A DNA stretch of 64,000 nucleotides from a virus, in IMG/VR virus record IMGVR_UViG_3300005444_000001, positions 4,406 through 68,405 of that record, one strand, 5' to 3'. Both the position numbers and the translations under genes were made by a program. Below are positions 1,596-54,893 of the stretch, one piece after another. How positions within the stretch are numbered: position 1 is the stretch's first letter; every line of letters begins with the position of its first letter. The notes beneath the pieces are model-generated. The model saw only the letters and a program-made list of their open reading frames with translations, ran no database searches and was not told the origin of the DNA.

Positions 1596-2855
1596 ATGTC
1601 AGTCCTTCTCGCTAATGTCGAGGCGGCGGTCAAGGAGTATTACTCCGGCGGCGTCGAAGACGTCACGTTTAATGTCGATGACACGCTCAGCGAAATTGAA
1701 GCCGGTAAAGACTTCGAAGAACTGAACTCGCGCGGCGCCAGCCTGGTTATCCGCCCGCTGAATAACGTGTCAGAGAAGTGGGGAACCGCCGAAATCGCAG
1801 ACTTTCCGAATCCCGGCGTGTCGCCTTTGGTCAAGACGACGGTTACGTTCACCGGGGTATCAGCGTCCGCGCTGTTCTCAGGTCACGTGCTGGCCGAAAA
1901 CCAGACCGCGACTCAGATCACTAACACGGTTACAGGCGAACTTGACAACAAAATGGAAAACCTTCGAGATTCGATGGATTTCCTCGTTTGGGGTGACGCG
2001 ACGAACGAGCGCGCCAGAGTGTCAAGCGCGACCTTGCTGGTAGTCACATGCACCAACGCTGGCAATTTGTTTGGCGTGCAAATGCTGGAAGTCGGTATGC
2101 CAGTTGAGTTCAGAACCTCTGGCGGCACTCAGCATCAAGGCGGCGGAGTGACCGTAAGCACGATCACGGCAGTTGACTACGCGAACCAGACCTTCACGGT
2201 GGACGTGATTCCGTCCGACGTCGCGAACAATGATCGCGTTGTGCTGTCCGGGTCTTACGGCTCCGCCTTCAGGGGCGCTCTCTACCATATCGCGACATCT
2301 GGTGCATGGCAGGGACTTGCGGATCGAACCATCTACCGCGGAACCACGCCGACGATCGTGACGGCGACGGGCGCTTTGACTCAGGGCTTGATCGAAAAAA
2401 TGATCTCGGCCAGAGCGTTGAAAACCGGCAAACGCACAGCCGGCGGACGGAAACTTTACGTCTCCGCTCAGTGGTCAGCCTTCGTGGCGATTGGGTTCGA
2501 GATGAAATCCTTCGTCAATACCACGGAGTTCAACGCGGGTTTCAAAGACGGCGAAACCGGTTACGGTGATTACAAATTCAAGTTCTCGAAACACGTTCAG
2601 AGGGACATGGTTTGGGACATGAATTTCAAACTTCTCCGTGCTTACAAAATGAGCACGAAGATGATTGAGATGGAGAAGAATGACGCCGGTGGAATTTTTC
2701 ACCAACTCAATGCCGCCCAGGGTCAGATGCACGCAGACGGAAAGGCCGTGTACTGGAAAGGGTATCTGAACTTTGGAACCAAGACTCCAGTTGACCTTGG
2801 AACCAGAATTGACGGGTTGTCCACGACTGGATTGGCCCTCGGGAATAGTAATTAG
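1596..2855 (+). CDS. Major capsid protein
   Basis: 419 aa, strong SD (AAGGAG). N-terminal 'AVKEYYSG' and 'E...L...L...WGD' pattern typical of a widespread phage MCP family with a beta-rich insertion; position after the scaffold. Confidence 0.8.
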   Translation: MSVLLANVEAAVKEYYSGGVEDVTFNVDDTLSEIEAGKDFEELNSRGASLVIRPLNNVSEKWGTAEIADFPNPGVSPLVKTTVTFTGVSASALFSGHVLAENQTATQITNTVTGELDNKMENLRDSMDFLVWGDATNERARVSSATLLVVTCTNAGNLFGVQMLEVGMPVEFRTSGGTQHQGGGVTVSTITAVDYANQTFTVDVIPSDVANNDRVVLSGSYGSAFRGALYHIATSGAWQGLADRTIYRGTTPTIVTATGALTQGLIEKMISARALKTGKRTAGGRKLYVSAQWSAFVAIGFEMKSFVNTTEFNAGFKDGETGYGDYKFKFSKHVQRDMVWDMNFKLLRAYKMSTKMIEMEKNDAGGIFHQLNAAQGQMHADGKAVYWKGYLNFGTKTPVDLGTRIDGLSTTGLALGNSN

Positions 2856-2957: not shown

Positions 2958-3443
2958 ATGAAATGGTGTTCAGCGTGTGAGCAAGATAAGCCGTTTTCAG
3001 ATTTCGGGAAGAACAAAACAACGCCCGACGGATATCAGTATCACTGTCTGGCGTGTTCTCGATTAGCAGATGCGACATGGCGCGAAGCGAATCGCGATAA
3101 AAGTCGAAAGAAAGCCCGCGCCCATTACCACAAAACGAAAGACCGGTTCTTTGAGAGATTTGAGCAAGCGAAGGCGGTTGTCTTCCGTCACTACGGCGGC
3201 GCGTGCTATTGCTGCGGCGAAACCGAATGGGCTTTCCTGACGATTGACCACGCGGATAATTCAGGCCGCGCTGAACGGAAAGCCAAGGCGGGCATAGGTG
3301 GTAGCCAGATGTACTTCAAGATCATCGAACGCGGCTTCCCGACGCACCTTCGCCTTGCTTGTTGGAACTGTAACTGTGGCCGCGCAAGAAACAACGGCGT
3401 TTGCCCGCACGAGCAGCGGCGTCAAGACTTGTTAGCGGCATAA
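2958..3443 (+). CDS. Free-standing HNH-type endonuclease with Zn-binding motifs
   Basis: CxxC...CxxC N-terminus; 'CYCCGE...LTIDH...LACWNCN' HNH-like core; SD GGAGG. Confidence 0.75.
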   Translation: MKWCSACEQDKPFSDFGKNKTTPDGYQYHCLACSRLADATWREANRDKSRKKARAHYHKTKDRFFERFEQAKAVVFRHYGGACYCCGETEWAFLTIDHADNSGRAERKAKAGIGGSQMYFKIIERGFPTHLRLACWNCNCGRARNNGVCPHEQRRQDLLAA

Positions 3444-7461: not shown

Positions 7462-8064
7462 ATGGCAAAGAAGAAAGCAGCAGTGAGGAAAAACGACGAC
7501 ATCCCGGAGACGGTGGCACCGGCTCCGGCGCATCGCGTGCTCAAGGCAGGCACGATCATTGTCGGCGCTGCGGATCGAAGCCCGGGAAGTAATCAGCCTA
7601 TCACCACGCCAGGCAGCAGAGTACCGCTGCGGCTTGTGAATGATACGCCCGTCGAGTTTGACGGCTCTGACAGGGATGAAGTCTTTGTCAGCATTCTCGC
7701 CACGAACACGGAGAACTTCGCGCTGAACATCGGCAGCGTGCCCGGAAAGTGGAGTCCGACCGGCGCGCGACTGCCGAACGAGTGCGGAGTCTGCGGCACG
7801 GAGATTCCTGCGGCGGCGGCGGATCAGATAACTTGCGCCGGATGTATCGCCAAAGGCAAATTGCCGCCGACCGAATACACGGGCGAGGAACGACGCGTTC
7901 TGAAGGTGCGCAGAACTCAGGTTGTGCCGCTGAATGACGCGCCTGAAAGACGCGTTGGACCGACGGATCGACGTGAAGCAGTCGCGCAGAAAGCCGCCGT
8001 GCCGAAGCAAGTCGCCGCGAAGGCTGCCAAGAAAGCCGCAGCTAAGAAAGCGTCCGCGAAATAG
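7462..8064 (+). CDS. Hypothetical protein with Lys/Ala-rich termini and CxxC pairs
   Basis: 200 aa; MAKKKAA...AKAAKKAAAKKASAK; CGVC...CAGC. Confidence 0.55.
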   Translation: MAKKKAAVRKNDDIPETVAPAPAHRVLKAGTIIVGAADRSPGSNQPITTPGSRVPLRLVNDTPVEFDGSDRDEVFVSILATNTENFALNIGSVPGKWSPTGARLPNECGVCGTEIPAAAADQITCAGCIAKGKLPPTEYTGEERRVLKVRRTQVVPLNDAPERRVGPTDRREAVAQKAAVPKQVAAKAAKKAAAKKASAK

Positions 8065-12463: not shown

Positions 12464-13749
12464 ACATTCAATCCCTCGATGATAAAGTCAACAATTTACG
12501 CGTTCAGTTGAATCGGGCGCAGGACACTATTAGTGCGCAGGCCGCCCAAATCGCCCTGCTTGACCGTACCGTCAAAGACTTGCCAAAGTCCGGCGCGCCG
12601 GGAATTCATAACTACATCCGAAACGGCGACTTCTCCCACTCGTTCGATACTTATTACAACCTCCCTTCAGTCGCTGACGACACTCGATTCGAGTGCTGGA
12701 ATGTCTACACACACGCCGCGCCGTCAGTCGGTCAGCAACTTAAAGAGGATTCGGTTTATTCAGGTGCGGCAGTAGCTGATTCGACAGCGCTGCCAGACAC
12801 CGGGAGATCAGACACGCCCACGGTCGATCCGTGGTGGGATCGCACTCAGGGACATGGAATGATCGGATCTACGCGCACGATTGACTTTGTTTTACCGGGA
12901 AACGTGGGTGTTGCAGCACGAAAGTTCTCCTTCATGCTGATTGCCGCCAAGCGTTCCGCGAATGTTGGCGTGCCTGGGCGCTTCTTTGCGGGAGTTTGGG
13001 ACAATACCGCAGGCCAGCGCGACTTCCTGAATGGCGACGGCTTCTCGATTGACGCCGAAGTTGTCGGCATTCCCGCCACGACCGTTTCCCGCGAATATCT
13101 GATCGTAATGACCAGCGACTCAGGGAAGACGGTGAAGAGTTCGACGGTCACGGTGAATAACGCGCCAGCGGATTCTGCCTTTGTCTCAGGGCAAGTGTAT
13201 GTGCGATTGACGTGGCCGAACTTCGCGGGCTTCATTCAATCGGACATTTACCGTAAGACCGCAGGCGTCTACGTTCTTCTGGCGCGTCAAAGCACGGTCG
13301 TTCAATACTTTGACCAGGGCGACATTCAACAAAGCGTCGGGAACTATCCCGACACGTCAGACACGCAGCAGAAAGCGATCGTTTATTCTCCGGCGGGCGC
13401 GTTCGACTCTTTTCCGATTGACGGCGTGGATCCGGAGTGGCAGCAGTATTTGATTACACTGCAAATTCCGCCGACCTATGTTCAGTCGAACACGACAGAT
13501 AAGCAATGGCTGCGAATCGGCTTCGACCAGGCGCTAACCGGGAGTGACGCGGCGCACGGGATGTTGATTGATCTCGTAGGACTGTCGCCGACATCGGGGA
13601 GTTGGGCGCATAATGACGAAGATAACAAAGGTCAACAGCAATTTGTATCCACACCGACCGGCACGCAGGGCGGCGCGGGTACGGGCGGCGGGTCGTTCGA
13701 ACCGCCCGATCCGGGCGACGGTGGCCCGCGAGAATTCACCATTGCGTAA
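12460..13749 (+). CDS. Tail-associated structural protein
   Basis: 429 aa, N-terminal coiled coil then 'NYIRNGDF' (CBM-like start) and beta-rich body; GTGA overlap. Confidence 0.55.
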   Translation: MNIQSLDDKVNNLRVQLNRAQDTISAQAAQIALLDRTVKDLPKSGAPGIHNYIRNGDFSHSFDTYYNLPSVADDTRFECWNVYTHAAPSVGQQLKEDSVYSGAAVADSTALPDTGRSDTPTVDPWWDRTQGHGMIGSTRTIDFVLPGNVGVAARKFSFMLIAAKRSANVGVPGRFFAGVWDNTAGQRDFLNGDGFSIDAEVVGIPATTVSREYLIVMTSDSGKTVKSSTVTVNNAPADSAFVSGQVYVRLTWPNFAGFIQSDIYRKTAGVYVLLARQSTVVQYFDQGDIQQSVGNYPDTSDTQQKAIVYSPAGAFDSFPIDGVDPEWQQYLITLQIPPTYVQSNTTDKQWLRIGFDQALTGSDAAHGMLIDLVGLSPTSGSWAHNDEDNKGQQQFVSTPTGTQGGAGTGGGSFEPPDPGDGGPREFTIA

Positions 13750-13810
13750 AAAATTCTTTATGACACGCTTGGATTTGTGTCAATATGCCCGGCGACGGTC
13801 AGTCTGACAC

Positions 13811-13827
13811 GTCGCCCAGTGGGAGAG
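13811..13827. repeat. 17-bp palindrome copy
   Basis: GTCGCCCAGTGGGAGAG, 6 nt past the stop of the antisense HNH. Confidence 0.9.
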
Positions 13828-13833
13828 ACGGAT

Positions 13834-14406
13834 TTAGATTACATGCTTCCAACGCTGAAAATTAACGATGTCTTTAACGTGGGACTGGCAAAGTCCGTAT
13901 TCCGCTCCCAGGGCGGATTGACTTATTCCGCCAGCGGCGTAGCGGCGTCGAATCTCGCGAACGTCGGTTTCGGTCAGTCGCGCGTTGTGATGCTGCTCAC
14001 CGGCGTACTCGCCGCGATGTCGGCCTTTCGCAATCTTGTCTTGCATGTTGCCGTTGTTGTCAGTGCTAAACAGATGATCAGGGCGCACGCAAGGTGGATT
14101 GTCGCAATGGTGCGCGACTACTTCGGCCAGCCAGCCAAAGCAGATAAGGAAGGCATAGCGATGTGCGCGCAGAGCCCAGCGCCTGCCGCCAAACTGTCCG
14201 TAGCCGTCTCTATCGCGCCCAAAGCGCCATTCCCAACAATCGCCCTTTGGACCCTGACCGGGCAACTGATTAACCTTGCGCCAAAAGCGCCGCATAACGT
14301 TAATAGCGGTGTCAGGAGGCAAGGACGGTGGTGCGCAGGAATCACACCGGAAGCCCCTTCCGACTTTTCTTTTCGGATTACTACAAATCTCGCATATTGG
14401 GTTCAT
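13834..14406 (-). CDS. HNH homing endonuclease (HNH_3 type), antisense insertion
   Basis: 'RFWRKV...CWEW...GYG...AHR...HHCDNPPCVRPDHL...N..D...KGR' plus C-terminal HTH. Confidence 0.9.
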   Translation of the reverse strand: MNPICEICSNPKRKVGRGFRCDSCAPPSLPPDTAINVMRRFWRKVNQLPGQGPKGDCWEWRFGRDRDGYGQFGGRRWALRAHRYAFLICFGWLAEVVAHHCDNPPCVRPDHLFSTDNNGNMQDKIAKGRHRGEYAGEQHHNARLTETDVREIRRRYAAGGISQSALGAEYGLCQSHVKDIVNFQRWKHVI

Positions 14407-14452
14407 TTACTGAGAATACCAAACGATATCGGTATTTTGAAAGGAAAAAGCA

Positions 14453-15079
14453 TTGGCTAAGGGCAGCCGCGCATTAGCAGAGGAAATGAAGCGCCGCGAT
14501 ATTGAAGATCGCGCAGCGCAGCATGAAGCGTTGACTGCCGCTACGACACCTTCTGCCGCCGAAACCGATCTTGAAAAGGATCGTAAAGCCTACTTCGACT
14601 GGAAAGCTAAGGGCGACTTCCGCACGCCGCCGCCGGGACTTATCGGCATTAACTACGGGCCGGAAGCGGTACGGCGCAGACAACTCGAACAAACGGCAGT
14701 CCCGACCGGCGCGGCAGGAATGGGCGCGGCGTATGCGAGTCCGACCGCTTTGGCGCTGACTCGCGACTACCTATCGAATGTAAACGCCGAAAACGACGCC
14801 ACGGCGTATCAGGGCGCGTTGCAAGGCGAAGACCTGTATCAGCGTACCGGAAATTCGCTTGGGTTGATGAATGCTGACTTTGCGCGCAAGTCATCAGTCC
14901 TCGGCGCGACAACCAACCAATCGCAGCTTTCGACGGGCGCCCGTATCCAGACCACACCGAAGCCTTGGACTCAGACTATTTTACCCGCGTTAATCAGCGG
15001 CGGGCTATCGGCGGGCGGAGCGTTCTTAGGTGGTCCCGCGTTCGCGGCAATGATGAAGCCAGTAACCAAAACAGTATGA
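14453..15079 (+). CDS. Putative DNA pilot/ejection protein
   Basis: 208 aa, TTG start with SD AAGGA; Ala/Gly-rich C-terminus typical of pilot proteins. Confidence 0.45.
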   Translation: MAKGSRALAEEMKRRDIEDRAAQHEALTAATTPSAAETDLEKDRKAYFDWKAKGDFRTPPPGLIGINYGPEAVRRRQLEQTAVPTGAAGMGAAYASPTALALTRDYLSNVNAENDATAYQGALQGEDLYQRTGNSLGLMNADFARKSSVLGATTNQSQLSTGARIQTTPKPWTQTILPALISGGLSAGGAFLGGPAFAAMMKPVTKTV

Positions 15080-17337
15080 AGCGAATACTTCTCAGTCTAG
15101 TTTTTCTTTTAATGCTCTGCGCTCCGGCGTGGGCGACTCAGATCACGGTAAGCTCATTTCAACCGGGGCTTTCTTGGAATTACGGCTCGACGCAGCCGGT
15201 TACGCTCAGGATCTACGTCTCAGCATCTTTCGTCACGAGTGATGGCGTCTCCATAGTCGCCAGTCCGGTCGGCGGCGCAGGGTTCTATAAGACGATTACT
15301 TGTTCAGTTGTGGGCACGACGCTCACGGTCAGTTCTTTCGTTATTCCGAGCACAACCGACGCGACTCCGACCACGGCCAGGTACACATTCATTTTCTTTC
15401 AAGGCAGCACGAAGCGCGACGTCTTATGGTCGAACTATCAAGTACCCGTCTCGCTCGGTACGACAATTTCAAACAGTCAGTTGGAGATTTACAATCGCAC
15501 AGCGCCAGCGCCGCCGCGCCCGGGCTTCCCGACTACTGACCAAGTGCAGCAATTGATTAACGCGGTTCCGCCGACAGTCAAGATGACGGACGCGATTTAT
15601 GGTATTGGAACATTAAGCGTACCGGCGGCGATCTCTACGGCACCAAAAGTGGTCGGTAACAACGATCCGCGCGTTACGGCAGACCAGGCGGCGAGTGTCG
15701 CAAGCATTAGAACGCTCGGGCTGGACACGCTTCAGGCTATGCCGGGCGCGGTTATACCATTGCCCGCGCCTGGCAAGGTGACTCTGACAGATGATGGGGC
15801 CGGGACTCTTTCATCGGGTACTTATAAGATTGGAGTGGTTGCGGTCAATGCTCTTGGTGGTGAGGGGCAGTTCGACCCACTTGGGTACGCAGCAAATAAC
15901 TCAATCACAATTGTCGCGAGTCATAACATTGGAGTCGTGTGGTCAGCAGTGGCGGGGGCTGCAAAATACCACGTTTACGTTTGGGGGCCGACAGGGACAT
16001 ATTACCAGCGGTACTACGAAACTTCTTCCACGTCGCTAATTCTTTCCGAAAATCCTGTTGGGCCAGTACTAACTTTAACCAGCGCAACAACCAATCTAAT
16101 CACCGCATGGACTGCCACGAACCCTATTGAGTTGACTACCACGTCGCCTCACGGTCTTGTTACTGGGCGGTCAGTGATCATCTCAGGCGGGACGGGGATT
16201 ACCCAGAAGATTAACAGTGGATGGATAGTTACAAGGACCGGGGCGAGCACGTTTACCATACCGCTTGATGGAACGTCATTCGTCACCGGTTCACCTTTAG
16301 GCACTCCCGTTGTGCAGGCCATCTCAGTTACCTCATCGAATACAGGTGGAAGCCTTAAAGCAGGTAGTTATTACTTCGGCATCGAAGCCGAGTTTTCAGA
16401 TGGCGGGACGGTCGATCAGTCGGCCTATTATGGTAACTACCCAGTGGGAACAGTTACTGGCACTGACACGGGTTCGATCACCGTTTCGTGGACAGCGGTA
16501 ACAGGGGCAACCCTCTACCGGGTTTATGTCGTCAGCGATCAAGACGGCAACCCACGGACGCACACAAAATACTTCACGACGGCGTTAACCAGCATCACCG
16601 TTACAGGAACTGAATCGTATATCCGCGGAGTTGCGGCCTCACAGTTTCATGGTGAGGGAGAAACTGAATCGAGCGCGGTTGGAATCTTTGGAACGATCCG
16701 TACCGTAGCCGATGCTAAAAGTTACTTTGGCGGCGACGTCTCGATAACCGCGAAGAAGGGGGCTGATGCGGGGTTTCAGGCTAACCGGTTTGACAGTAAC
16801 GGGTTTGCTGGCCTGTCAATGCGTCAGAGCGCCCAAGAGTACTGGCGGATGGGAATGGAAGGCAGCGAACAGAACTTTTATATCTTCCGACCCGTTTCAC
16901 CGTTCTTCATGTTCAAGATAGATTACGACACGGGGCTGACCACTGTTGGGCTATCGCTTCAGGTTAATGGCTCCGTTCAAATAACCTCCCCAAGTAATGT
17001 CATTCAGTGGCTTGCTGGAGAGGGCAACGTAGATAGAATTATTCTTAATCCGTCTAATGCTGGAATCGGAATAGATAATTTGCATGGTGACGTGACTATT
17101 TGGTCGCCAGTTTTAGAGGGGGTAAGTTTCAAAAACGATAACCGCAATGGAACACTTTTGGCCCGATTAACGGGAACTGGTAATTTTGGTATTGGTACAG
17201 ACGCACCGACAAGCAAGTTACAGGTGGTGGGACTACCGGTGTATGCCAATAACGCTGCCGCCCTGGCCGGAGGATTGACGGCTGGCGCTTTTTACCGGAC
17301 GGGCGCGGATCCGGACGCGGTTGCGGTGGTTCACTGA
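15076..17337 (+). CDS. Tail-fibre-like protein with N-terminal signal peptide
   Basis: Start corrected to ATG 15076 (ATGA overlap). MKRILLSLVFLLMLCAPAWA|TQ; two Fn3-like 'V.W.AV.GA..Y.VY' modules; E1-FCCH-like 'ITAWTATNPIELTTTSPHGL'; 'GNFGIGTDAPTSKLQV' fibre motif. Confidence 0.65.
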   Translation: MKRILLSLVFLLMLCAPAWATQITVSSFQPGLSWNYGSTQPVTLRIYVSASFVTSDGVSIVASPVGGAGFYKTITCSVVGTTLTVSSFVIPSTTDATPTTARYTFIFFQGSTKRDVLWSNYQVPVSLGTTISNSQLEIYNRTAPAPPRPGFPTTDQVQQLINAVPPTVKMTDAIYGIGTLSVPAAISTAPKVVGNNDPRVTADQAASVASIRTLGLDTLQAMPGAVIPLPAPGKVTLTDDGAGTLSSGTYKIGVVAVNALGGEGQFDPLGYAANNSITIVASHNIGVVWSAVAGAAKYHVYVWGPTGTYYQRYYETSSTSLILSENPVGPVLTLTSATTNLITAWTATNPIELTTTSPHGLVTGRSVIISGGTGITQKINSGWIVTRTGASTFTIPLDGTSFVTGSPLGTPVVQAISVTSSNTGGSLKAGSYYFGIEAEFSDGGTVDQSAYYGNYPVGTVTGTDTGSITVSWTAVTGATLYRVYVVSDQDGNPRTHTKYFTTALTSITVTGTESYIRGVAASQFHGEGETESSAVGIFGTIRTVADAKSYFGGDVSITAKKGADAGFQANRFDSNGFAGLSMRQSAQEYWRMGMEGSEQNFYIFRPVSPFFMFKIDYDTGLTTVGLSLQVNGSVQITSPSNVIQWLAGEGNVDRIILNPSNAGIGIDNLHGDVTIWSPVLEGVSFKNDNRNGTLLARLTGTGNFGIGTDAPTSKLQVVGLPVYANNAAALAGGLTAGAFYRTGADPDAVAVVH

Positions 17338-17356
17338 GACGGATTAGGGAGTGACA

Positions 17357-18418
17357 ATGAAACGATTTTTACTCTTAGTTTTGTTCCTTTGCGCGGGCGC
17401 GGTAAGTGTCATTGCCCAGACGCCAACCACAACTCAGAACGCGCGGCGACTGCCGAATGGATCGGGCGCGCCGACCGGAAGTTGCGTGGCGGGTCCGCCG
17501 TTCATTCAGACCTACATTGATTCGTCGACCACGCCGCCGACAACTTACTACTGCAAAGCAGGGACGTGGACAGCATCATCTGGCGCGGGCTCTGCGGCTC
17601 CGAAAGACGCGACCTACATCACGGAAACCGCAAACACGACTCTTACAAATGAGTTTGCCTTGGGATCGCTGGCGACTGGCATTCTCAAAAACACTACGAC
17701 GACAGGAGTGCCGAGCGTCATCGTTCCAGGCACAGGCGTCGAAACCGCCCTTGCGGTCAACGTAGGTTCGGCCGGGGCGTTCGTGACCTTCAACGGCGCG
17801 TTAGGCACGCCGTCGTCAGGAACAGCCACTAATCTCACGGGAACGGCATCAGGGTTGACTGTCGGCAACGTCACGGGTACAGGCGTAGCATCGGCAACCT
17901 CGTTGGCTCTCGGTGGCGCGACTATTGGGACTAATAATTTAGCGGTCACCGGAAAGAGCGCTTTTAGCAGTCAGATGGTTGTTACTGGTCCCTCTGGCGA
18001 CTATACAATTGTTGCCAGCAACCTCGCAGCGGCGGGTAGCTCATACGGCCTTGAAATAAACGCAGGAGGCAATTCGTCTGATTGGCCGTTCATCGTGAAC
18101 GATAGAGTAGGCGCGACACTGCTCCTACTGCGGGGTGATGGTGATTTACAGCTTACAAAGACTGTTACAGCCGCAGGCACGACCGGCACTCAGACGATTA
18201 ACAAAACCACCGGGTCGGTCAATTTCGCTGCCTCCGCAACGTCGCTTGTAGTTACCAATTCGCTTGTCGCAGCTACTAGTATTATCCAATGCACTGTAGG
18301 TACTAACGACGTAACCATGAAGTCAGTTCAGTGTGTGCCGGGATCGGGTAGCTTTACGATTTTCGCTAACGCGGCTGCTACGGCTGAAACGCGAGTTAAT
18401 TTCACTGTAACGAACTAA
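17357..18418 (+). CDS. Fibre-like Thr/Gly/Ala-rich protein with signal peptide
   Basis: MKRFLLLVLFLCAGAVSVIA|QT; 'GTPSSGTATNLTG' fibre-like repeats. Confidence 0.6.
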   Translation: MKRFLLLVLFLCAGAVSVIAQTPTTTQNARRLPNGSGAPTGSCVAGPPFIQTYIDSSTTPPTTYYCKAGTWTASSGAGSAAPKDATYITETANTTLTNEFALGSLATGILKNTTTTGVPSVIVPGTGVETALAVNVGSAGAFVTFNGALGTPSSGTATNLTGTASGLTVGNVTGTGVASATSLALGGATIGTNNLAVTGKSAFSSQMVVTGPSGDYTIVASNLAAAGSSYGLEINAGGNSSDWPFIVNDRVGATLLLLRGDGDLQLTKTVTAAGTTGTQTINKTTGSVNFAASATSLVVTNSLVAATSIIQCTVGTNDVTMKSVQCVPGSGSFTIFANAAATAETRVNFTVTN

Positions 18419-18431
18419 AGGTAGGAAGATA

Positions 18432-18977
18432 ATGAAACATCCATATCGTTCTGCGACGCTCGGCCTCCTATTGATGCTTATGAGCATGGCTGCTGGTCCA
18501 CCACTACTTGAGCGTTCTTGGGACTTTCTCAGTCCTGAAGCGTTCGGGCAAGCCTCAGACACCTGCTCAGATGGACAGTCCATCGTGCTCGACACGGCAA
18601 ATAAGCGATATAAGTGCATCTCGACGCCGCTGATCTTTCGCACCAAGGCTCTGAACGTCAACCAAACCAACACTGACATTGGATCGTTTGCTGGGCTTCC
18701 TGCGCGTTACATTGTGAGACGCTTCACGGTTGATAATGCCTCAGCGACGCCAACATTGAGTACGATAGCGTTGCGCACGGCAACAGGTGGTGGAGGAACT
18801 GCCATAGTAACCGCCCAGGCGTTATCTACTCTGAGCGCAGCCACAACCTTTATTGACGCGACACTGGCGGTAACGACTTCGGCGCAGACCGCCAGCACGT
18901 TGACGATTCGCGCAGTTGCGGCGGCAGGGACGACATCAACCTGTGACTTCACGCTTGAAATTGTCCCATTGCCATGA
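18432..18977 (+). CDS. Structural-like protein with hydrophobic N-terminus (possible signal peptide)
   Basis: MKHPYRSATLGLLLMLMSMAAG...; Thr/Ala-rich beta-sandwich-like C-terminus. Confidence 0.55.
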   Translation: MKHPYRSATLGLLLMLMSMAAGPPLLERSWDFLSPEAFGQASDTCSDGQSIVLDTANKRYKCISTPLIFRTKALNVNQTNTDIGSFAGLPARYIVRRFTVDNASATPTLSTIALRTATGGGGTAIVTAQALSTLSAATTFIDATLAVTTSAQTASTLTIRAVAAAGTTSTCDFTLEIVPLP

Positions 18978-18987
18978 AAGGAAAGCA

Positions 18988-19266
18988 ATGAAGCGACTAT
19001 TGTTGATTCTTCTGGTGGTAGTCACAGCGGGCGCACAACAGCCAAAGCCGGACGCCGTAACGCTCCCGGCCGAAGCCAGCAAGGCGTACAATGCCATTGC
19101 TGCTCGTCAAGCAGAACTCGCTCAACAGTGGCAGATTCTGGAGAGCCAGCGGCAGATGTTGCTGATCGGCGCTAACGTGCCGACGGAAGCACGAATGAAT
19201 TGCACGGGCGATCCAGTTGTCTGTAAGAAGCCGGAGACAGCGAAGGCGGGTCCTGAGAAGAAGTGA
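18988..19266 (+). CDS. Small secreted coiled-coil protein
   Basis: Start corrected to ATG 18988 (SD AAGGA); MKRLLLILLVVVTAGA|QQ. Confidence 0.6.
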   Translation: MKRLLLILLVVVTAGAQQPKPDAVTLPAEASKAYNAIAARQAELAQQWQILESQRQMLLIGANVPTEARMNCTGDPVVCKKPETAKAGPEKK

Positions 19267-19280
19267 GGCGCAATTGATAA

Positions 19281-19751
19281 ATGCCTTCATGGGTTCTTTA
19301 CATCATCGGAACGGCGGCGGTAGTGACGGCCATCGGCGTACTATGGACGAAGGCTATCAAGCCCACCGCAAAGCTGATTACAACCACGGATCAGATGTTG
19401 CCGTTGCTAATCACGCTGACAGAAACTTTCAAAAGCAATCCAAATGGATTCAAGGTCTTAAATGAGATTGCGGCGCAGTTCAAAACAGACAGCGGCTCAA
19501 GTCTTCGGGATGTAGTCAACAGACTTGAGGAAGCAGCGAAAGAGAATCGCGCAGCAGCAGACTTGTTGAAGGTTGGGGTCGAGGCTCAGAAGCAGTTAGG
19601 CGAACAGGATCGGGAGCAGCTTCGGCAATTATTGATTTCTCTTGATCGGGTCGGAGTAAAAGTTGACGCGGGGGCCGCAACGGGATTAAGAAACGAAGCC
19701 GCGGCAAAGGTGGTAGCATCTGATTTAGCAAGTCACCGTGACAAGAAGTGA
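19281..19751 (+). CDS. Single-TM coiled-coil protein (holin- or spanin-like)
   Basis: N-terminal TM 'WVLYIIGTAAVVTAIGVLW' followed by coiled coil. Confidence 0.45.
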   Translation: MPSWVLYIIGTAAVVTAIGVLWTKAIKPTAKLITTTDQMLPLLITLTETFKSNPNGFKVLNEIAAQFKTDSGSSLRDVVNRLEEAAKENRAAADLLKVGVEAQKQLGEQDREQLRQLLISLDRVGVKVDAGAATGLRNEAAAKVVASDLASHRDKK

Positions 19752-19764
19752 ACGGGAGGAAACT

Positions 19765-20001
19765 ATGACACTCTTACTGCTCTTACTTATAAACAACATC
19801 GGTGGCAACGGGCCGCAGTTCGCGCTGCCGTGGATATTCTGGGTGGCGTTTGCGCTGTGGATATTTCTCGGATTCAGGTGGTACTGGCGCGGCGACGGTG
19901 CGCCCGGTCGGTGGATCGGGCCGGGCAATCACGCCATGATCACGCTCTTTATCTTCCTACTCGGTTGGGGGATATTCGGGCTACCAGGCATCGGCCGCTG
20001 A
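19765..20001 (+). CDS. Small multi-pass membrane protein (possible holin)
   Basis: SD GGAGG; 78 aa with three hydrophobic Trp/Phe-rich segments. Confidence 0.5.
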   Translation: MTLLLLLLINNIGGNGPQFALPWIFWVAFALWIFLGFRWYWRGDGAPGRWIGPGNHAMITLFIFLLGWGIFGLPGIGR

Positions 20002-20008
20002 ATTTTAC

Positions 20009-20037
20009 TTGGCAATCAATTTTGTTTTCTGTATAAC
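20009..20037 (+). promoter_or_regulatory. sigma70-type promoter
   Basis: TTGGCA, 17 bp, extended TG-TATAAC; shares TCTGTATAA with the promoters at 51980 and 55828. Confidence 0.55.
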
Positions 20038-20061
20038 CACGGAAGTTAATGGAGGCACATT

Positions 20062-20589
20062 ATGAGTGAAGTCACGATACCAATGGGCGGCGGCGCGAGT
20101 TATTCGGGCGGAGTCGGTACTCGAGGGCGCTGTCCGCGCATTTCGAGTTCGGGCGCGACGACCGGAATGGAAGATTCGCCGTATGCGAGCATCGAAGTTT
20201 CATTGACCGCTGCACAAATCAAGGCTCTGCGCGCGACGCCGGTAGAACTTGTTCCGGCACCAGGCGCGAATAAGGTGCTTGATTTCATCGGCGCGCATTT
20301 TCAACTGCTCGCTGGCGGGACCGGGTTCACTGAGAGCGGATGCAACCTTGGCATCAAATACACGGACGGGTCAGGCGTCCAAGTGAACGAGACGGTCGAG
20401 GCGACAGGCTTCATCGACCAGACCGTGAACACGAATACGAGTGCTCGCAAGAAACTCGATCCGATTGTGGCCGCGAGCGCTGCGACGAATAAAGCCCTCG
20501 TGCTTCACAACGTCGGCGGCGGCGAAATCGCGGCTGGCGACGGCACGATGAAAGTGAAAGTGCTTTTCGCTGTTCACGCTGCAGGCTAA
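20062..20589 (+). CDS. Virion structural protein (decoration/fibre-like)
   Basis: 175 aa; 'LTAAQIKALRATPVELVPAPGA' motif recurrent in phage structural proteins; SD GGAGG. Confidence 0.55.
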   Translation: MSEVTIPMGGGASYSGGVGTRGRCPRISSSGATTGMEDSPYASIEVSLTAAQIKALRATPVELVPAPGANKVLDFIGAHFQLLAGGTGFTESGCNLGIKYTDGSGVQVNETVEATGFIDQTVNTNTSARKKLDPIVAASAATNKALVLHNVGGGEIAAGDGTMKVKVLFAVHAAG

Positions 20590-20591
20590 AC

Positions 20592-20608
20592 GTCTCCCAA
20601 TGGGCGAC
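20592..20608. repeat. 17-bp palindrome copy
   Basis: GTCTCCCAATGGGCGAC, 2 nt after a stop codon. Confidence 0.9.
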
Positions 20609-20628
20609 ATTCTTTCGGAGGTCTTCGA

Positions 20629-21300
20629 ATGAAACGCAATCTGCTTATCTCTTTGGTTTTGCTTCTAACGTTGGTGGCTATCGTGATCGCCAACACATAT
20701 TCTGGCGGCGTGTCCGGCACGGCGACCGGAAACGCGCTTCTGAAAAGCACCGGCGATCGCTCAGTCGGTGGATCTTCCGCGTCAGATGACGGCACGACCT
20801 TCACGATTAACACGAACAAGGTTCTCATCACTGAGTCAAACGGCAACACGACGATTGCCGGAACTCTGGCTGTCACCGGCGCTACGGTGCATACTGGCAC
20901 GGTCAATGGCCCGTTCGGCGCGGTGCGGCAATTAACCACACCTGTCGTGTTGACCGCCGCACAATCAGGCCAATTAGAAGTCGTTGCGAGTACGGCGGAT
21001 GCGGTAACTACTTTCACTTTGCCAGCGGCGTCTACCGCAGGGTTGCGTTATTGCTTCGCCGCAGACGTAGTAACCGGTTCGAATCGAGAAATTGACATCG
21101 AACCGCCTGGCGCCGCCGATCTCATTGTCGGCACGACGACGCCCGCCGGCGGAACCGGCATCGCGACTACTGCAGGCGCGGGGCACGGCATCAAGAATAC
21201 TCACGCGACGGCTGTGCGCGGCAATTCGGTCTGCTTACAGTCGGACGGGACGAACACGTGGTACATGACGAGCCTGAGCGGTATCTGGGCGGCTTACTAA
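20629..21300 (+). CDS. Fibre/spike-like protein with signal peptide
   Basis: MKRNLLISLVLLLTLVAIVIA|NT; Thr/Gly-rich; C-terminal 'LQSDGTNTWY' typical of phage fibres. Confidence 0.6.
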   Translation: MKRNLLISLVLLLTLVAIVIANTYSGGVSGTATGNALLKSTGDRSVGGSSASDDGTTFTINTNKVLITESNGNTTIAGTLAVTGATVHTGTVNGPFGAVRQLTTPVVLTAAQSGQLEVVASTADAVTTFTLPAASTAGLRYCFAADVVTGSNREIDIEPPGAADLIVGTTTPAGGTGIATTAGAGHGIKNTHATAVRGNSVCLQSDGTNTWYMTSLSGIWAAY

Positions 21301-21301
21301 A

Positions 21302-21622
21302 ATGACGCTTTCACACACAGACGAAAAAGGCAGGACATTTGCTTTAGCTGACGGCGATCAAACCGTAGCGTCGCTTTTAGCCGCAGCGGGTCTGGACATT
21401 TTCTCCGGCTGCAAGAGCATTGAGATTCGCTGCGAAACAAACGGGCCGATCGCTGTAGCGGTCAATACTGTAATGACGGCACTGACTGATGGTAAGCAGT
21501 TGGCCGGAACCGATGACACGGTGCTCCGCTCCGTTCGATATGAGCAGAAAGACACCAATCACGTACACATCTTTGCGGTCGGCACGGCGGATAAGGTGTA
21601 CATCGAAGTCAGCAGTTTCTAA
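21302..21622 (+). CDS. Hypothetical protein
   Basis: 106 aa, last gene of the + operon. Confidence 0.5.
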   Translation: MTLSHTDEKGRTFALADGDQTVASLLAAAGLDIFSGCKSIEIRCETNGPIAVAVNTVMTALTDGKQLAGTDDTVLRSVRYEQKDTNHVHIFAVGTADKVYIEVSSF

Positions 21623-21655: not shown

Positions 21656-21691
21656 GGCGCGTCACTTCCGGGTGGCGCGTTCTTTTTTTTT
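21656..21691 (+). terminator. Rho-independent terminator ending the structural operon
   Basis: GGCGCGTCAC-TTCCGG-GTGGCGCGTT followed by C and T9; convergent gene boundary. Confidence 0.8.
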
Positions 21692-43047: not shown

Positions 43048-43299
43048 CTACTTCTTCCGCTTGTCCTGGTCCTTGTGCATCCAGCAGTAATCACCCTCAA
43101 CTTTAACCGGCCGCCGACACCGCACGCCCTTCTTAGTAATCCCCGCGCAGTAATGCCGCTCCTTCATCTGCGCCTCAACCTCAATAAGTGTCGATGCCAC
43201 CCGACTAGAGCGCGCCTCAACCTTCTGCTCAATCCCTCGCTGACAACCAGAAAGCCCTAACGCTCCCGCCAATACCAAAAGACCTAATAGACTCTTCAT
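43048..43299 (-). CDS. Lipoprotein with C-terminal Cys/His knuckle
   Basis: MKSLLGLLVLAGALGLSG|C lipobox; CAGITKKGVRCRRPVKVEGDYCWMH. Confidence 0.6.
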   Translation of the reverse strand: MKSLLGLLVLAGALGLSGCQRGIEQKVEARSSRVASTLIEVEAQMKERHYCAGITKKGVRCRRPVKVEGDYCWMHKDQDKRKK

Positions 43300-49101: not shown

Positions 49102-49362
49102 ATGAGCGAGCGCTATCAAAAAGAAGTCAACGATCTGATTGAGTGGTATGCCGCTCGACTCCCGGCCTGCGGGCCTTTCTCGCTGACTGAGAGCGAATAC
49201 AAGCAAGGAACGGATGCGCTGAAGGGCAACCACGCAACGCTCGCTCAGGCGGCATTTATCGAGTGGCTGGCAACTCGCAACTATGAACTCAGTTACAACC
49301 AGTGTTGTTGCGCGTGCTTTGAGGCAGCGAAACGGGCAGGGATGCTGACCGTAAATAGTTGA
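49102..49362 (+). CDS. Hypothetical protein
   Basis: 86 aa, SD GGAG. Confidence 0.45.
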   Translation: MSERYQKEVNDLIEWYAARLPACGPFSLTESEYKQGTDALKGNHATLAQAAFIEWLATRNYELSYNQCCCACFEAAKRAGMLTVNS

Positions 49363-49388
49363 AGCCCTCTGGATGTTGGGGAGAAAAA

Positions 49389-50024
49389 ATGACGCGAGTA
49401 ATCGGCTACATTCGAGTGAGTACAGGCGAGCAGGCGGACTCGGGGGCGGGTTTGCAGGCGCAGCGCGAGCGAATCGATGCGGAGTGTCAGCGCCGGGAAT
49501 GGGAACTTGTGCGCGTCTTCGAAGATGCGGGCTTGTCGGGGAAGTCCACGGACCGGCCGGGATTTGAGGCGGCGCTGGAGTACCTGCAGGATCGCGCGGC
49601 CGAAGGGATTGTCGTCTCAAACCTCGATCGATTGACGCGTTCACTGAAAGACTTTGCGGAGTTAATGGAAAAGGCGCGGGCTGAGCAGTGGAACCTCGTT
49701 GCCCTGGATTTGGGAGTTGATTTGTCCACGCCGGCGGGTGAGTTCCTGGCGCACGTCATGGCCTCTGTCGCCCAGTGGGAGAGACGGATCATTTCTCAAA
49801 GAACGAAGTCAGCGCTGGCGGTGAAGAAGGCGCAGGGCGTGAAGTTAGGCAGTCCGACAAAGACGACGAAGGAGACGAGAGAGTTGATTCGACGGCGCCG
49901 CGAGGCGGGCGAGTCGCTGGCGAAGATTGCGGAGATGTTGAACGAGCAGGGGATTGAGACAGGTCGCGGCGGGAAGCAGTGGTATCCTTCGAGCGTGGCG
50001 TCAGCGGCGGCAGCGCCGGATTAA
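49389..50024 (+). CDS. Serine recombinase (resolvase/invertase family)
   Basis: 'IGYIRVSTGEQ', 'SGKSTDRPG', 'LDRLTRS', 'ERRIISQRTKSAL..KKAQG..LG'. Confidence 0.9.
   Translation: MTRVIGYIRVSTGEQADSGAGLQAQRERIDAECQRREWELVRVFEDAGLSGKSTDRPGFEAALEYLQDRAAEGIVVSNLDRLTRSLKDFAELMEKARAEQWNLVALDLGVDLSTPAGEFLAHVMASVAQWERRIISQRTKSALAVKKAQGVKLGSPTKTTKETRELIRRRREAGESLAKIAEMLNEQGIETGRGGKQWYPSSVASAAAAPD
49767..49783. repeat. 17-bp palindrome copy
   Basis: GTCGCCCAGTGGGAGAG, inside the recombinase CDS (VAQWER). Confidence 0.9.
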
Positions 50025-52924: not shown

Positions 52925-53212
52925 ATGGCGAAAGCTAAAGCCGCAAGCGTGACCCAATCCACTGAACAGCGTCTCCCCGGCGCGGAAGACCCAACTATTC
53001 CGGAAATCCACCAGGCCGCCGCGTCGCTTCTGGACGTGCGCAGCCGCCGCATCGCGCTCACGAAAGAGGAAAGCGACGCTGAAAAGATCGTCGTCGAGGC
53101 GATGAAAAAGAACGAACGCGACTACTACAATGTTGACGGATTGGAAGTGACGATCAACCACGGCAAAGACAAAGCCAAGGTCGCTCACGTCTCGTCCGGC
53201 GACGATGAGTAA
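52925..53212 (+). CDS. Hypothetical phage protein
   Basis: 95 aa, SD AAGGAG. Confidence 0.5.
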   Translation: MAKAKAASVTQSTEQRLPGAEDPTIPEIHQAAASLLDVRSRRIALTKEESDAEKIVVEAMKKNERDYYNVDGLEVTINHGKDKAKVAHVSSGDDE

Positions 53213-53294
53213 ATCTTTCCGCTTTACCTGTAGTCCTTTTTCTGGCACTCTGCGCTCAGGCGTGGAGCGCCAGTTTTGTTTTGAAGGGAATCTT

Positions 53295-53801
53295 ATGAAT
53301 CGACGAACAATGTTGAAGCGCATCGGCACTGGCGCCGCAATCGTGGCGGCTAGTCCGAGCGTATTGTTAATGCAGGGATGCGGCGTGAAGGACATCGCCT
53401 TCTACGTCTCCACAGTCGTCGGCGCGCTCGGTGAACTGAGTCCGCTACTGCCCGGTGCCACCAAACTTATCGCTGAAGCCGTAAAGGTCGCGAACGACTT
53501 TCTCGCGAAGTACAAGGCGGAAGACTTCTCGAATGCCACGGCGCTCTTTCAGAATCTCGTCAGTGTGATTACTCAGATCGCGTCTGATGTTGGTGTGAAT
53601 AATCCGTCCGTGAAGATTATTCTGGCGATTGCCAACGTAGCGATTCACGCGATTGCGGCGCTTCTAGCCGGACAGGCCACACCAGCGGTTAAAGCGCGTA
53701 TGGCGAAGGCGAATTCCGCGCAGTTGGCGCAAGCGAACGTGATCGGGAAACTCGCGGACCCTGCGACGATTGACCAGATATTTGCAGCGACAAAACCGTA
53801 A
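53295..53801 (+). CDS. Tat-signal lipoprotein
   Basis: MNRRTMLK twin-arginine motif, h-region, 'LMQG|C' lipobox; amphipathic helical body. Confidence 0.6.
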   Translation: MNRRTMLKRIGTGAAIVAASPSVLLMQGCGVKDIAFYVSTVVGALGELSPLLPGATKLIAEAVKVANDFLAKYKAEDFSNATALFQNLVSVITQIASDVGVNNPSVKIILAIANVAIHAIAALLAGQATPAVKARMAKANSAQLAQANVIGKLADPATIDQIFAATKP

Positions 53802-53859
53802 ATGGTCTGGCGTTGCTGATTGTGGGAGTTAATAATTGTTCGATAGGTGAGGTAAAATC

Positions 53860-54015
53860 ATGTCTGACAAAGATTGCGAGAAGAAAGATAAAGTTGAGGA
53901 AAAAGATGAGCAGTCAAGCGACGGCCCGCGTCCAACCGATCCAATCATTCCCGGCGCAGACGAACCAGGCGGCGGCGTCAGCAGCGGACCGCCTGAGCCC
54001 GGCGGCGGAGACTAA
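53860..54015 (+). CDS. Short acidic Pro/Gly-rich peptide
   Basis: 51 aa MSDKDCEKK...PPEPGGGD*, SD GAGGT; overlaps the next ORF in another frame. Confidence 0.35.
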   Translation: MSDKDCEKKDKVEEKDEQSSDGPRPTDPIIPGADEPGGGVSSGPPEPGGGD

Positions 54016-54463
54016 GCCGCGCTGGATCTGGCGAGTAGTCACATGGAAGTACACCGTGGACGCCACTTCAAAATGGCTGAAGCGTGTGTACTTCTATTGC
54101 GTGTTTCTTCAGTTCAATCGCTTTTCGTATTGGGCATTCGATCTCGTGCCGCCAAACGGTCGGGACGATACCGGACGATTATGTTGGACGGAAGACCAAG
54201 GGTGCTGGGATACCGAATGGGAAGCCGAGCAGGAAGCCCTACTCTATCCATTTGGGCATGCTATTAAAGTGCCTCTACGAGCCTCGCTTCCCCGTGCGTC
54301 AGTTCATACTGAACAGATCCATCCGCACTCGCCACCCGAAGTGAAGAAGATGTATCAGAAGAAAACTGCAAGTGAGACTATCGAGTTATCCCGGCTTGAC
54401 GTCATCAAAGTAGCGGCAAAACTGGCGCAGAGTGACAGGATTTTTGAGTCGAAGGCCGTATGA
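53906..54463 (+). CDS. Hypothetical aromatic-rich protein
   Basis: ORF continuous to 54463; true start uncertain. Confidence 0.45.
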   Translation: MSSQATARVQPIQSFPAQTNQAAASAADRLSPAAETKPRWIWRVVTWKYTVDATSKWLKRVYFYCVFLQFNRFSYWAFDLVPPNGRDDTGRLCWTEDQGCWDTEWEAEQEALLYPFGHAIKVPLRASLPRASVHTEQIHPHSPPEVKKMYQKKTASETIELSRLDVIKVAAKLAQSDRIFESKAV

Positions 54464-54470
54464 GAACACA

Positions 54471-54893
54471 ATGCAGGATTCGACATCGCCGTCTCTCACT
54501 ACATACCTCTCCGCCCTTGCGGCGATAGCATCCCTTGTGGGAATCCCTGTAAGTTCAATCCTTACTTATCTTTTCACACGCCCAAAACAATCCGCTGAAA
54601 TTCATAAGACTGAGGCTGAAGCGCAGGAGATTCAGTCTTCGATTATGATGAGGATCTACAGACGTCTTGATGATTACGAGATAGTGCGCCAGCGATTGAA
54701 TGAGGCGATTGCGGACCTGGAAAACAGGAATTTTGACTTGGAATATGCTAGCCGGGTGAAGGATTCGAGAATCAAGCAACAATCAGAAGAAATCACGATC
54801 CTTAATCTCCAGATTCAGCGTGCACGCGCCCAAGGGTTCTTGGAAGAGAGAGAGCCGCATTCCCCGAACCCTGCCGCCACTCCGCCATCTTAA
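54471..54893 (+). CDS. Single-TM coiled-coil protein (holin-like)
   Basis: 'YLSALAAIASLVGIPVSSILTYLF' followed by coiled coil. Confidence 0.5.
   Translation: MQDSTSPSLTTYLSALAAIASLVGIPVSSILTYLFTRPKQSAEIHKTEAEAQEIQSSIMMRIYRRLDDYEIVRQRLNEAIADLENRNFDLEYASRVKDSRIKQQSEEITILNLQIQRARAQGFLEEREPHSPNPAATPPS

Follow-up and report, generated by a model that had tools for sequence, protein, structure and literature searches.

In all textbook cases, the particles of tailed phages are finished in the cytoplasm. Why, then, would a tailed phage place signals for export through the Sec pathway on its fibres? This question is raised by a 64,000-nucleotide stretch of viral DNA (IMG/VR record IMGVR_UViG_3300005444_000001, positions 4,406 to 68,405; called the window below), in which a block of fibre-type genes follows the tail genes of the late operon. 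The window is most of a virus genome that is complete at 72.8 kb, with direct terminal repeats. The phage is of soil type and, like its relatives, uncultured. A sequence-only reading of the window had placed Sec signal peptides at the starts of five proteins of this block, and all five N-termini were found: those of fibre 1 (start at 15076), fibre 2 (17357) and three smaller proteins of 181, 92 and 223 residues (18432, 18988 and 20629). They behave as conserved, cleavable Sec signals, both in their layout and in comparison with relatives, and we consider it likely from these sequences that export from the cytoplasm and cleavage are genuine.

Signal calls were made with a rule-based script together with comparative evidence. 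All five proteins have an n-region of MKR or MKH, and the h-regions in the block consist of 8-17 uncharged residues with a mean Kyte-Doolittle hydropathy of 2.3-3.2. The c-regions have small residues at -3 and -1 and are followed by a polar mature start (predicted cuts are given in Table 1). The signal of the 181-residue protein had been described as less clean and proved so, since it can be read as S-M-A/AGPP or as an uncleaved anchor. The signal of fibre 1 is identical at 19 of its 20 residues in L003, the relative used for most comparisons below. The absence of a lipobox led us to reject lipoprotein (type II) signals, and the absence of a twin arginine to reject Tat signals.

These hydrophobic stretches would be an annotation artefact if the true starts lay downstream and the stretches were untranslated or out of frame. 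We regard this as very improbable. Gene calls are error-prone in uncultured phages, and in the gene at 18432, residues 15-19 include several in-frame ATG codons. However, Shine-Dalgarno-like motifs (GGGAG, AGGTAGGA, AAAGGA and GGAGG) precede four of the signal-peptide starts, and the start of fibre 1 is coupled to the stop of the preceding 208-residue gene by an ATGA overlap, which supports these start codons. Also, the leaders are conserved as protein across many independent contigs; in several orthologues, the 45 codons that follow the initiator contain no in-frame start codon whatsoever. An internal start yielding a signal-less cytoplasmic isoform was rejected as well, since no conserved in-frame start with a ribosome-binding site was found near the cut. 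The reported clustering of the signals was borne out by a greedy set of 103 open reading frames (ORFs) from the whole genome. Hydrophobic N-termini preceded by Lys or Arg concentrate in the block; outside it, the scan picked up no more than a single lipoprotein and one or two such membrane proteins.

The block was checked gene by gene in four related phage contigs of 62-76 kb (L001, L002, L003 and L006). All four share the order of a large tail protein, a coiled-coil protein, a 208-residue-like protein and the fibre genes. In a fifth contig, L031, the core order is unchanged but interrupted by two small additional genes, and in L001 one small signal-bearing gene separates the 208-residue homologue from fibre 1. 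In these five contigs, the fibre-like genes past the 208-residue homologue all begin with a signal, and the homologues of the head protein and of the 924-, 429- and 208-residue proteins never do. A signal-bearing fibre-1 homologue was also found on a 70-kb phage contig (P0151), so that six related contigs of 62-76 kb in all retain the signals. All the contexts examined were phage genomes or contigs of 28-76 kb. Where the fibre-1 homologue is signal-less (L005, L032 and L004), the neighbouring fibre genes are signal-less too; in L005 there are about a dozen such neighbours, several of them fibre-like. For the fibre set, the signal is all-or-none per genome.

A search with residues 21-235 of fibre 1, which span its conserved N-terminal module (N-module), found 562 representative homologues, and 145 of them were examined. 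Leader length was bimodal, with 0-3 residues in 56 homologues, 15-30 residues in about 80 (83), and almost none between 3 and 15. The signal-less homologues start with M-S/T-x-I-T-I/V, and the signal-bearing ones have A-x-A directly before T-x-I-T-V. Since the predicted cut coincides with the start of the signal-less homologues (their residues 1-3), the mature N-terminus would equal their natural N-terminus. On a FastTree phylogeny of the module alone, 17 changes between the two states were counted, compared to about 45 with shuffled labels; at least 9 changes remained after collapsing nodes with support below 95, and 3 remained at 99. This module may therefore have served repeatedly in both signal-bearing and signal-less settings, although trees of short domains are noisy and recombination would look alike.

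What kind of proteins are being exported? The sequence-only reading had taken the mature parts for phage fibre or receptor-binding proteins in a late structural operon, and the comparison with relatives agrees, as do their structural neighbours. L003 is a relative whose 924-residue tail protein is 76% identical to that of the window. This protein and the 429-residue tail protein (68%) align with their L003 counterparts over the full length, which marks them as a conserved core that is not swapped, and the 208-residue protein is 77% identical. The signal-less structural proteins in general align over nearly the full length at 49-79% identity, with one exception, the 200-residue product of 7462-8064, of which residues 18-103 alone match L003 (41%). 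In L003, the orthologue of the 429-residue protein (12778-14538 of that contig) carries about 160 extra C-terminal residues that have no counterpart in the window. In fibre 1, similarity to the L003 orthologue extends only through residue 205, and in fibre 2 it covers only residues 1-119; the distal parts are unrelated. Named neighbours of fibre 2 and of the 181- and 223-residue proteins in the ESM Atlas belong to fibre families (Mtd_N, T4_gp9_10_N, PTL_trimer and Peptidase_S74), and those of fibre 2 are exclusively viral and of fibre type. From these sequence comparisons, the block appears to behave as the exchangeable host-recognition set of the phage, made up of two large fibres, a small fibre-like protein and small accessory proteins.

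Several of the motifs that had been listed for the mature parts lie in the distal part of fibre 1. The Fn3-like W-x-A-V-x-G-A-x-x-Y motif is present at residues 289 and 472, and GNFGIGT is present at residue 702. An E1-FCCH-like module had also been named; a match to E1_FCCH exists, but it lies below the Pfam cut-off (E 0.025). A weak PHROG match links the distal part to the Ig-like (immunoglobulin-like) end of major tail proteins. In general, none of the ten block proteins had a Pfam or PHROG match above the cut-off, and a PDB sequence search found no relative of fibre 1, fibre 2 or the 924-residue protein. Other homologues attach pectate-lyase or beta-helix domains (PF12708 and PF13229) behind a fibre-1-type N-module. 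About 50 residues at the end of fibre 1 (17179-17334; GNFGIGT...PTSKLQVVGLPV...GGLT.GAFYRTG.DPD.VAVVH) are about 80% conserved in P0003-P0007, in which the middles of the proteins differ, and this stretch may be a C-terminal cap or an assembly element.

The N-module of fibre 1 ends in a linker that terminates in V-G-N-N-D-P-R-V. AlphaFold2 modelled its beta-sandwich with a confidence (pLDDT) of about 96 over residues 21-140 and placed the leader before it as a separate helix (residues 2-14). The top four matches in a structure search with this module were N-terminal virion-attachment domains of solved fibres: the collar of Stf, the side fibre of lambda Ur (9e7m_Ta; Z 8.3, a value that is borderline by the calibration of the tool, with a root-mean-square deviation of 3.1 Å over 91 of 94 residues), the XM1 neck protein (Z 8.1), the A-1(L) neck fibre (Z 7.9) and the Bxb1 tail tip (Z 6.6). 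Unrelated Ig-like folds ranked next, with Z of 5.6 or less. Residues 1-94 of lambda Stf form a collar wrapping the tail (PMC12617516). The modelled N-module of fibre 1 is suggestive of a similar role, and we treat it as a candidate virion-docking, collar-like domain.

Fibre 2 provides a different kind of evidence. It has a mini-domain bounded by Cys43 and Cys66, a shaft module at about residues 84-175, and a variable C-terminal domain with Cys312 and Cys326. The shaft module is common to more than 1500 homologues, about a third of which bear a signal. In an alignment of 18 fibre-2 relatives, all of which carry the signal, the only invariant columns are Gln21, which directly follows the signal, and Pro39, and the Gln at +1 is invariant irrespective of the residue at -1. 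A Cys pair (C-x16-23-C) stands behind the signal in 16 of the 18; in P0019 and L003, the second Cys is set a few columns off by MAFFT. Both cysteines are missing from P0026, a homologue outside this alignment. In the window, the +1 Gln is encoded at 17417-17419 in fibre 2 and at 19036-19038 in the 92-residue protein, and it is not shared by fibre 1 (Thr) or the 223-residue protein (Asn). Gln at +1 is a hallmark of signal peptidase I substrates in Q-rule organisms such as Bacteroidetes, where its cyclisation to pyroglutamate stabilises proteins outside the cytoplasm (PMC5837995, PMC10653852). The C-terminus of fibre 2 has a short match to gp15 of EBPR podovirus 3 (tblastn against 50,697 cultured phage records), and its counterpart in L001 has a weak match to the S74 chaperone (Peptidase_S74).

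These features bear on the possibility that the leaders do not serve export at all. In that case the fibres would assemble in the cytoplasm, and the leader would be a membrane tether, a trimerisation or assembly handle that is removed by a phage protease, or a device for membrane insertion in the next infection. All tailed phages studied are, as a rule, assembled in the cytoplasm, and the leader of the 223-residue protein, with 17 hydrophobic residues, is long enough for a membrane anchor. Also, signal predictions on capsid proteins of Porphyromonas phages have been read as leaders cut by a prohead protease (PMC10367356). However, the full n-h-c layout with its small residues at -3 and -1 is kept here while the leader sequence varies freely, and the invariant +1 Gln and the adjacent Cys pair make sense only if the protein is cut and extracytoplasmic. 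The separate leader helix in the AlphaFold2 model also speaks against such a role, as does the finding that no phage-encoded signal peptidase was found in the genome. We therefore consider cytoplasmic assembly with these leaders distinctly unlikely.

If the fibres are exported, how would they come to be on the virion? The route that we propose has three steps. In the first, for which sequence and comparison argue strongly, the precursors would be targeted to SecYEG late in infection and cut at A-x-A by the signal peptidase I of the host. The new N-terminus would be the first strand of the docking domain in fibre 1 (TQITV...) or a Gln in fibre 2 and the 92-residue protein, and this Gln would probably be cyclised to pyroglutamate. 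In the second step, which is moderately supported, the fibres would fold and trimerise in the periplasm, and the disulfides Cys43-Cys66 and Cys312-Cys326 of fibre 2 would form there. In the third and weakest step, the capsid, the portal and the signal-less tail core (the 924-, 429- and 208-residue proteins) would assemble in the cytoplasm as fibreless particles. These would meet the fibres once the holin or lysis machinery breaches the inner membrane, and fibre 1 would dock through its N-terminal domain, which resembles the Stf collar. While the producer cell is still unlysed, exported fibres may also act on its own surface polysaccharide or receptor. Late joining of this kind is chemically feasible, since T4 fibres and P22 tailspikes attach in vitro to fibreless particles in classical complementation. 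We put the probability of the full chain, in which exported fibres are loaded onto virions after export, at roughly 45%.

Several points weigh against this loading route. No mechanism is known by which periplasmic fibres would efficiently meet cytoplasmic particles, and the dilution that lysis brings poses a serious difficulty. A periplasm about 25 nm wide may be a tight fit for long trimeric fibres. By the calibration of the tool, a match such as that to the Stf collar may reflect no more than a shared arrangement, and the best Foldseek match of the N-module, the tail fibre of cyanophage A-1(L), has an E value of only 0.018. Mature fibre 1 holds a single cysteine and hence no disulfide signature. 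An even cysteine count is somewhat commoner in signal-bearing fibre-1 homologues (54 of 82) than in signal-less ones (21 of 45), a weak sign of extracytoplasmic folding, but the difference is modest and was computed without regard to phylogeny. Also, three genes of the block type have no signals (20062, 21302 and a GDSL esterase in L006).

The fibres could instead be exported and never join the virion. They would then be secreted late onto the envelope of the infected cell, for receptor destruction or masking, for superinfection exclusion, or as soluble decoys or adhesins, and the particle would use another receptor-binding protein. Receptor stripping could help the progeny escape debris. This explanation requires no new assembly route and fits signals that look genuine. 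Receptor-blocking exported phage proteins are encoded beside fibre genes (T5 Llp, Cor and lambda Lom). The depolymerase-type domains in the relatives (PF12708 and PF13229) would suit it, and exported tailspike-like enzymes exist in bacteria (WceF, PMC7949094). What it lacks is a second receptor-binding protein: the signal-less tail proteins are conserved over their full length compared to L003, and no other exchangeable candidate was found. The all-or-none signal would leave such phages fibreless. In addition, signal-less fibres of other phages possess the N-module of fibre 1 as well, and this module looks like a virion-docking domain.

The position of the block speaks to the same point. Promoter-like matches in the region are fewer than in shuffled sequence, and the sole match inside the block is a weak one (9-of-12) within the fibre-1 gene. 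With no convincing promoter of its own, the block, which lies in the late operon, thus seems to be transcribed together with the virion genes, and this argues against purely cell-surface proteins. We consider a purely non-virion role rather unlikely. The docking-type N-domain, the finding that these are the only module-swapping proteins, the lack of an own promoter and the all-or-none pattern favour loading after export over an adhesin or decoy role. Our tentative proposal for this large lineage as a whole, which we would not yet back at even odds, is that in these uncultured tailed phages of 60-76 kb the entire exchangeable fibre set passes through Sec, is cleaved by signal peptidase I (often leading to pyroglutamate), folds oxidatively in the periplasm and is added to fibreless particles at envelope breach, and that the module has switched routes several times.

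How does this compare to known systems? The sequence-only reading knew of no characterised equivalent, and no description of Sec signals on tailed-phage fibres was found in the literature, subscription journals being outside the coverage. The block resembles lambda Stf (PDB 9e7m, PMC12617516) and tailspikes of the P22 and K1F type in lying at the end of the late operon and in joining a conserved N-module to swapped distal parts. The beta-sandwich and helix of its N-domain superpose on residues 1-94 of Stf, and relatives carry the beta-helix lyase and S74 chaperone domains seen in known fibres and tailspikes. Known fibres are signal-less and attach to the tail in the cytoplasm; in this block, by contrast, a predicted cleavable Sec signal stands before the anchor, and fibre 2 has its +1 Gln and Cys pair. 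At the sequence level, tblastn against the cultured phage records gave no match to the N-module of fibre 1 or to the head protein. From its sequence, the block appears to consist of phage receptor-binding fibres, a known kind of protein, and it would represent a new assembly route only if the last step is confirmed.

Lambda Lom and Bor, T5 Llp, Cor, secreted and SAR endolysins, and spanins are encoded by phages, carry a Sec or lipoprotein signal and function in the envelope of the infected or lysogenic cell. The T4 antiholin RI is another exported phage envelope protein (PMC8385771). The fibres here are likewise phage-encoded with export signals, and some of those known proteins are also encoded next to receptor-binding genes. 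However, they are small, single-domain and non-fibrous, and often morons with a promoter of their own, whereas the proteins here are modular fibres of up to 753 residues, with no lipobox and at most one weak promoter-like match inside the block.

Three further systems share single features. The MAT fibres of Bdellovibrio bacteriovorus have the same architecture of a signal peptide, a conserved beta-rich domain and a fibre with diverse tips; some carry the S74 chaperone-protease, and disulfides occur in their tip domains (Caulton et al. 2024, PMC10769870). The likeness is in architecture only, since these are chromosomal genes of a predatory bacterium whose products are displayed on the cell, unlike the proteins here, which are encoded in a phage virion operon. 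Pantoea stewartii WceF (PMC7949094) is a glycan-modifying enzyme, a tailspike-like trimer with an export signal that acts outside the cytoplasm. It is the product of a bacterial exopolysaccharide-locus gene without a virion-anchor module and is, therefore, relevant only as a model for a secreted depolymerase. In a set of Porphyromonas phage genes, the predicted cut also exposes an N-terminal Gln, and the Q-rule signals were read as an adaptation to the host secretion system (Matrishin et al. 2023, PMC10367356). That set consists of genes of unknown function, spanins and capsid proteins; no tail fibres and no +1 Gln that is invariant across a fibre family were described.

If the loading route is true, the last assembly step takes place outside the cytoplasm and virion assembly is split between two cell compartments. 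Alternatively, such phages secrete their receptor-binding and depolymerase repertoire for another purpose. Either outcome alters the annotation of fibre genes, as a signal peptide is often taken as grounds to leave a protein out of the virion class. Either would also affect how fibres are expressed for host-range engineering or depolymerase production, for which a periplasmic, oxidising setting and a pyroglutamate N-terminus would matter. The invariant +1 Gln, as a phage-side Q-rule signature, points to Q-rule hosts in both cases and is usable for host prediction. Homologues with and without a signal whose domains start identically form natural pairs, which provide a direct experimental handle.

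Table 1. Features of the window and, in the last row, of two host-family genomes. Lengths are in amino acids (aa); a slash marks the predicted signal peptidase cut.
Feature	Position	Strand	Description
Major head protein	1596-2855	+	HK97-type, phrog_14242
Two tail proteins, 924 aa and 429 aa	9689-13749	+	Upstream of the block; no hydrophobic N-terminus
Conserved 208-aa protein	14453-15079	+	No signal peptide; homologues in five relatives
Fibre 1, 753 aa	15076-17337	+	MKR, 17 uncharged residues, then A-W-A/TQITV
Fibre-1 signal peptide	15076-15135	+	Residues 1-20; n-h-c layout; predicted cut A-W-A/T
Fibre-1 conserved N-module	15136-15690	+	Beta-sandwich and helix (residues 21-141), then linker
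Fibre-1 exchangeable distal part	15691-17337	+	Two Fn3-like modules; C-terminal GNFGIGT...VAVVH tail
Fibre-2 precursor, 353 aa	17357-18418	+	Signal 1-20, V-I-A/QTPTT
181-aa protein	18432-18977	+	Less canonical signal or anchor (residues 1-22); beta-rich body
92-aa protein, predicted exported	18988-19266	+	Signal 1-16, A-G-A/QQPKP; C-terminal C-x6-C
156-aa membrane protein	19281-19751	+	One N-terminal transmembrane segment, Lys-rich flank, coiled coil
78-aa protein	19765-20001	+	Three hydrophobic segments; holin-like by shape only
175-aa protein	20062-20589	+	No signal peptide; 47% identical to a 168-aa L003 protein
223-aa small fibre-like protein	20629-21300	+	Signal 1-21, V-I-A/N; mature start NTYSGGVSG; Cys142/Cys202
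Conserved 106-aa protein	21302-21622	+	No signal peptide; closes the block; counterparts end the block in L002, L003 and L006
Intrinsic terminator	21656-21690	+	Strong; 11-bp stem, T9; ends the late structural operon
PF05096 glutaminyl cyclase	G002:C4:3380820-3381533; G001:C5:7695-8407		Plant-type

The smaller proteins of the block are less uniform than the two large fibres (Table 1). The 223-residue protein has its LQSDGTNTWY motif at residue 203, near the C-terminus, as had been noted. A signal is present in 25 of its 28 close homologues, often with a Gln right before NTY(S/A)GGVSG, and distant homologues of about 170 residues have none. Its Atlas neighbours are viral and include the Mtd_N, T4_gp9_10_N and PTL_trimer families. 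The 181-residue protein has only small viral proteins as structural neighbours in the Atlas (TM 0.62-0.69), and no counterpart was found in L003. The body of the 92-residue protein is helical or coiled-coil, and a 94-residue signal-bearing protein of L006 with the same layout looks like its counterpart, a match made by eye and not by alignment. With no lipobox Cys, the 92-residue protein is unlikely to be an o-spanin.

Two small membrane proteins at 19281 and 19765 are present in the block as reported, but the suggestion that they anchor or chaperone the fibres was not upheld, as they are not conserved in the closest relative and belong to no detectable family. Along with the 92-residue protein, they have no Pfam or PHROG family and no conserved counterpart in L003. 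In the 156-residue protein, the charge distribution suggests that the C-terminal coiled coil is cytoplasmic, where an i-spanin would have it in the periplasm, and L003 has a non-homologous 159-residue protein of like design at the same position. The Pfam and PHROG scans detected no endolysin family within the block or next to it.

Since the 175-residue protein has no signal, not every gene of the block is exported. The closing 106-residue protein is 49% identical to its L003 counterpart, the only one aligned. A signal-less GDSL/SGNH esterase stands among signal-bearing fibre genes in L006 (15423-16052) and on the 70-kb P0151 contig, so that exported and signal-less sets are interleaved.

Which host would read these signals? 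Two weak links lead to the Pyrinomonadaceae (Acidobacteriota): a homologue is named from a metagenome-assembled genome (MAG) of this family, and there is one genome-contig match. The latter came from a scan of genome contigs with a 13-sequence alignment, which found one locus only, on a 6-kb contig of another Pyrinomonadaceae MAG. Either link could stem from phage DNA that was binned with the MAG. A search of 401 Acidobacteriota genomes for the head protein found no match and thus gives no prophage evidence for a host. A plant-type glutaminyl cyclase (PF05096) is present in both of the Pyrinomonadaceae-family genomes tested. When 400 kb of one genome (G002, L010-L029; from the family of the Pyrinomonadaceae MAG G001) was scanned crudely, Gln was at +1 in 11 of 39 signal-like ORFs, compared to 3% of residues overall in a looser ORF set. 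Judged by these counts, the Q-rule may extend to this family, which the 2018 Q-rule paper did not examine (PMC5837995). The low-G+C leaders of many relatives, together with the Q-rule, would also fit Bacteroidota hosts.

The plus-strand late operon opens with a scaffold-like protein, followed by the HK97-type major head protein. About 10 structural genes that could not be annotated lie between the head gene and the genes of the 924-, 429- and 208-residue tail proteins, and the 208-residue gene is followed by the signal-bearing block and then by the terminator. The 924-residue protein had been called a nozzle and the 208-residue protein a pilot. Neither name was confirmed: no Pfam, PHROG or PDB family was found for the former, and no tool supported the latter. 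The 429-residue protein has a coiled coil at its N-terminus, and the 208-residue protein has a Gly-rich hydrophobic segment near its C-terminus (residues 176-201).

An HNH homing-endonuclease-like gene (13834-14406, minus strand) is inserted between the 429- and 208-residue genes, and L003 has a minus-strand ORF at this position. A second HNH gene (2958-3443) follows the head gene. A serine recombinase is encoded at 49359-50024 on the plus strand (Resolvase N-terminal domain, E 4e-41); with such an enzyme, the phage may be temperate or may use site-specific inversion. In the early minus-strand region, 43048-43299 encodes an 83-residue lipoprotein with the lipobox L-S-G-C followed by Gln. It has a weak zinc-finger-like C-terminus (DUF5763, below the cut-off) and is a candidate superinfection-exclusion lipoprotein. 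A possible lysis cassette at 53205-54893 on the plus strand is a better lysis candidate than the small proteins of the block. It includes a 216-residue ORF without a Pfam match, which lies between ORFs 53205 and 54432. An internal start in ORF 53205 gives a twin-arginine-like leader that ends in a lipobox-like L-M-Q-G-C (o-spanin-like or a lipoprotein), and ORF 54432 has a single N-terminal membrane segment followed by a coiled coil, as in an i-spanin.

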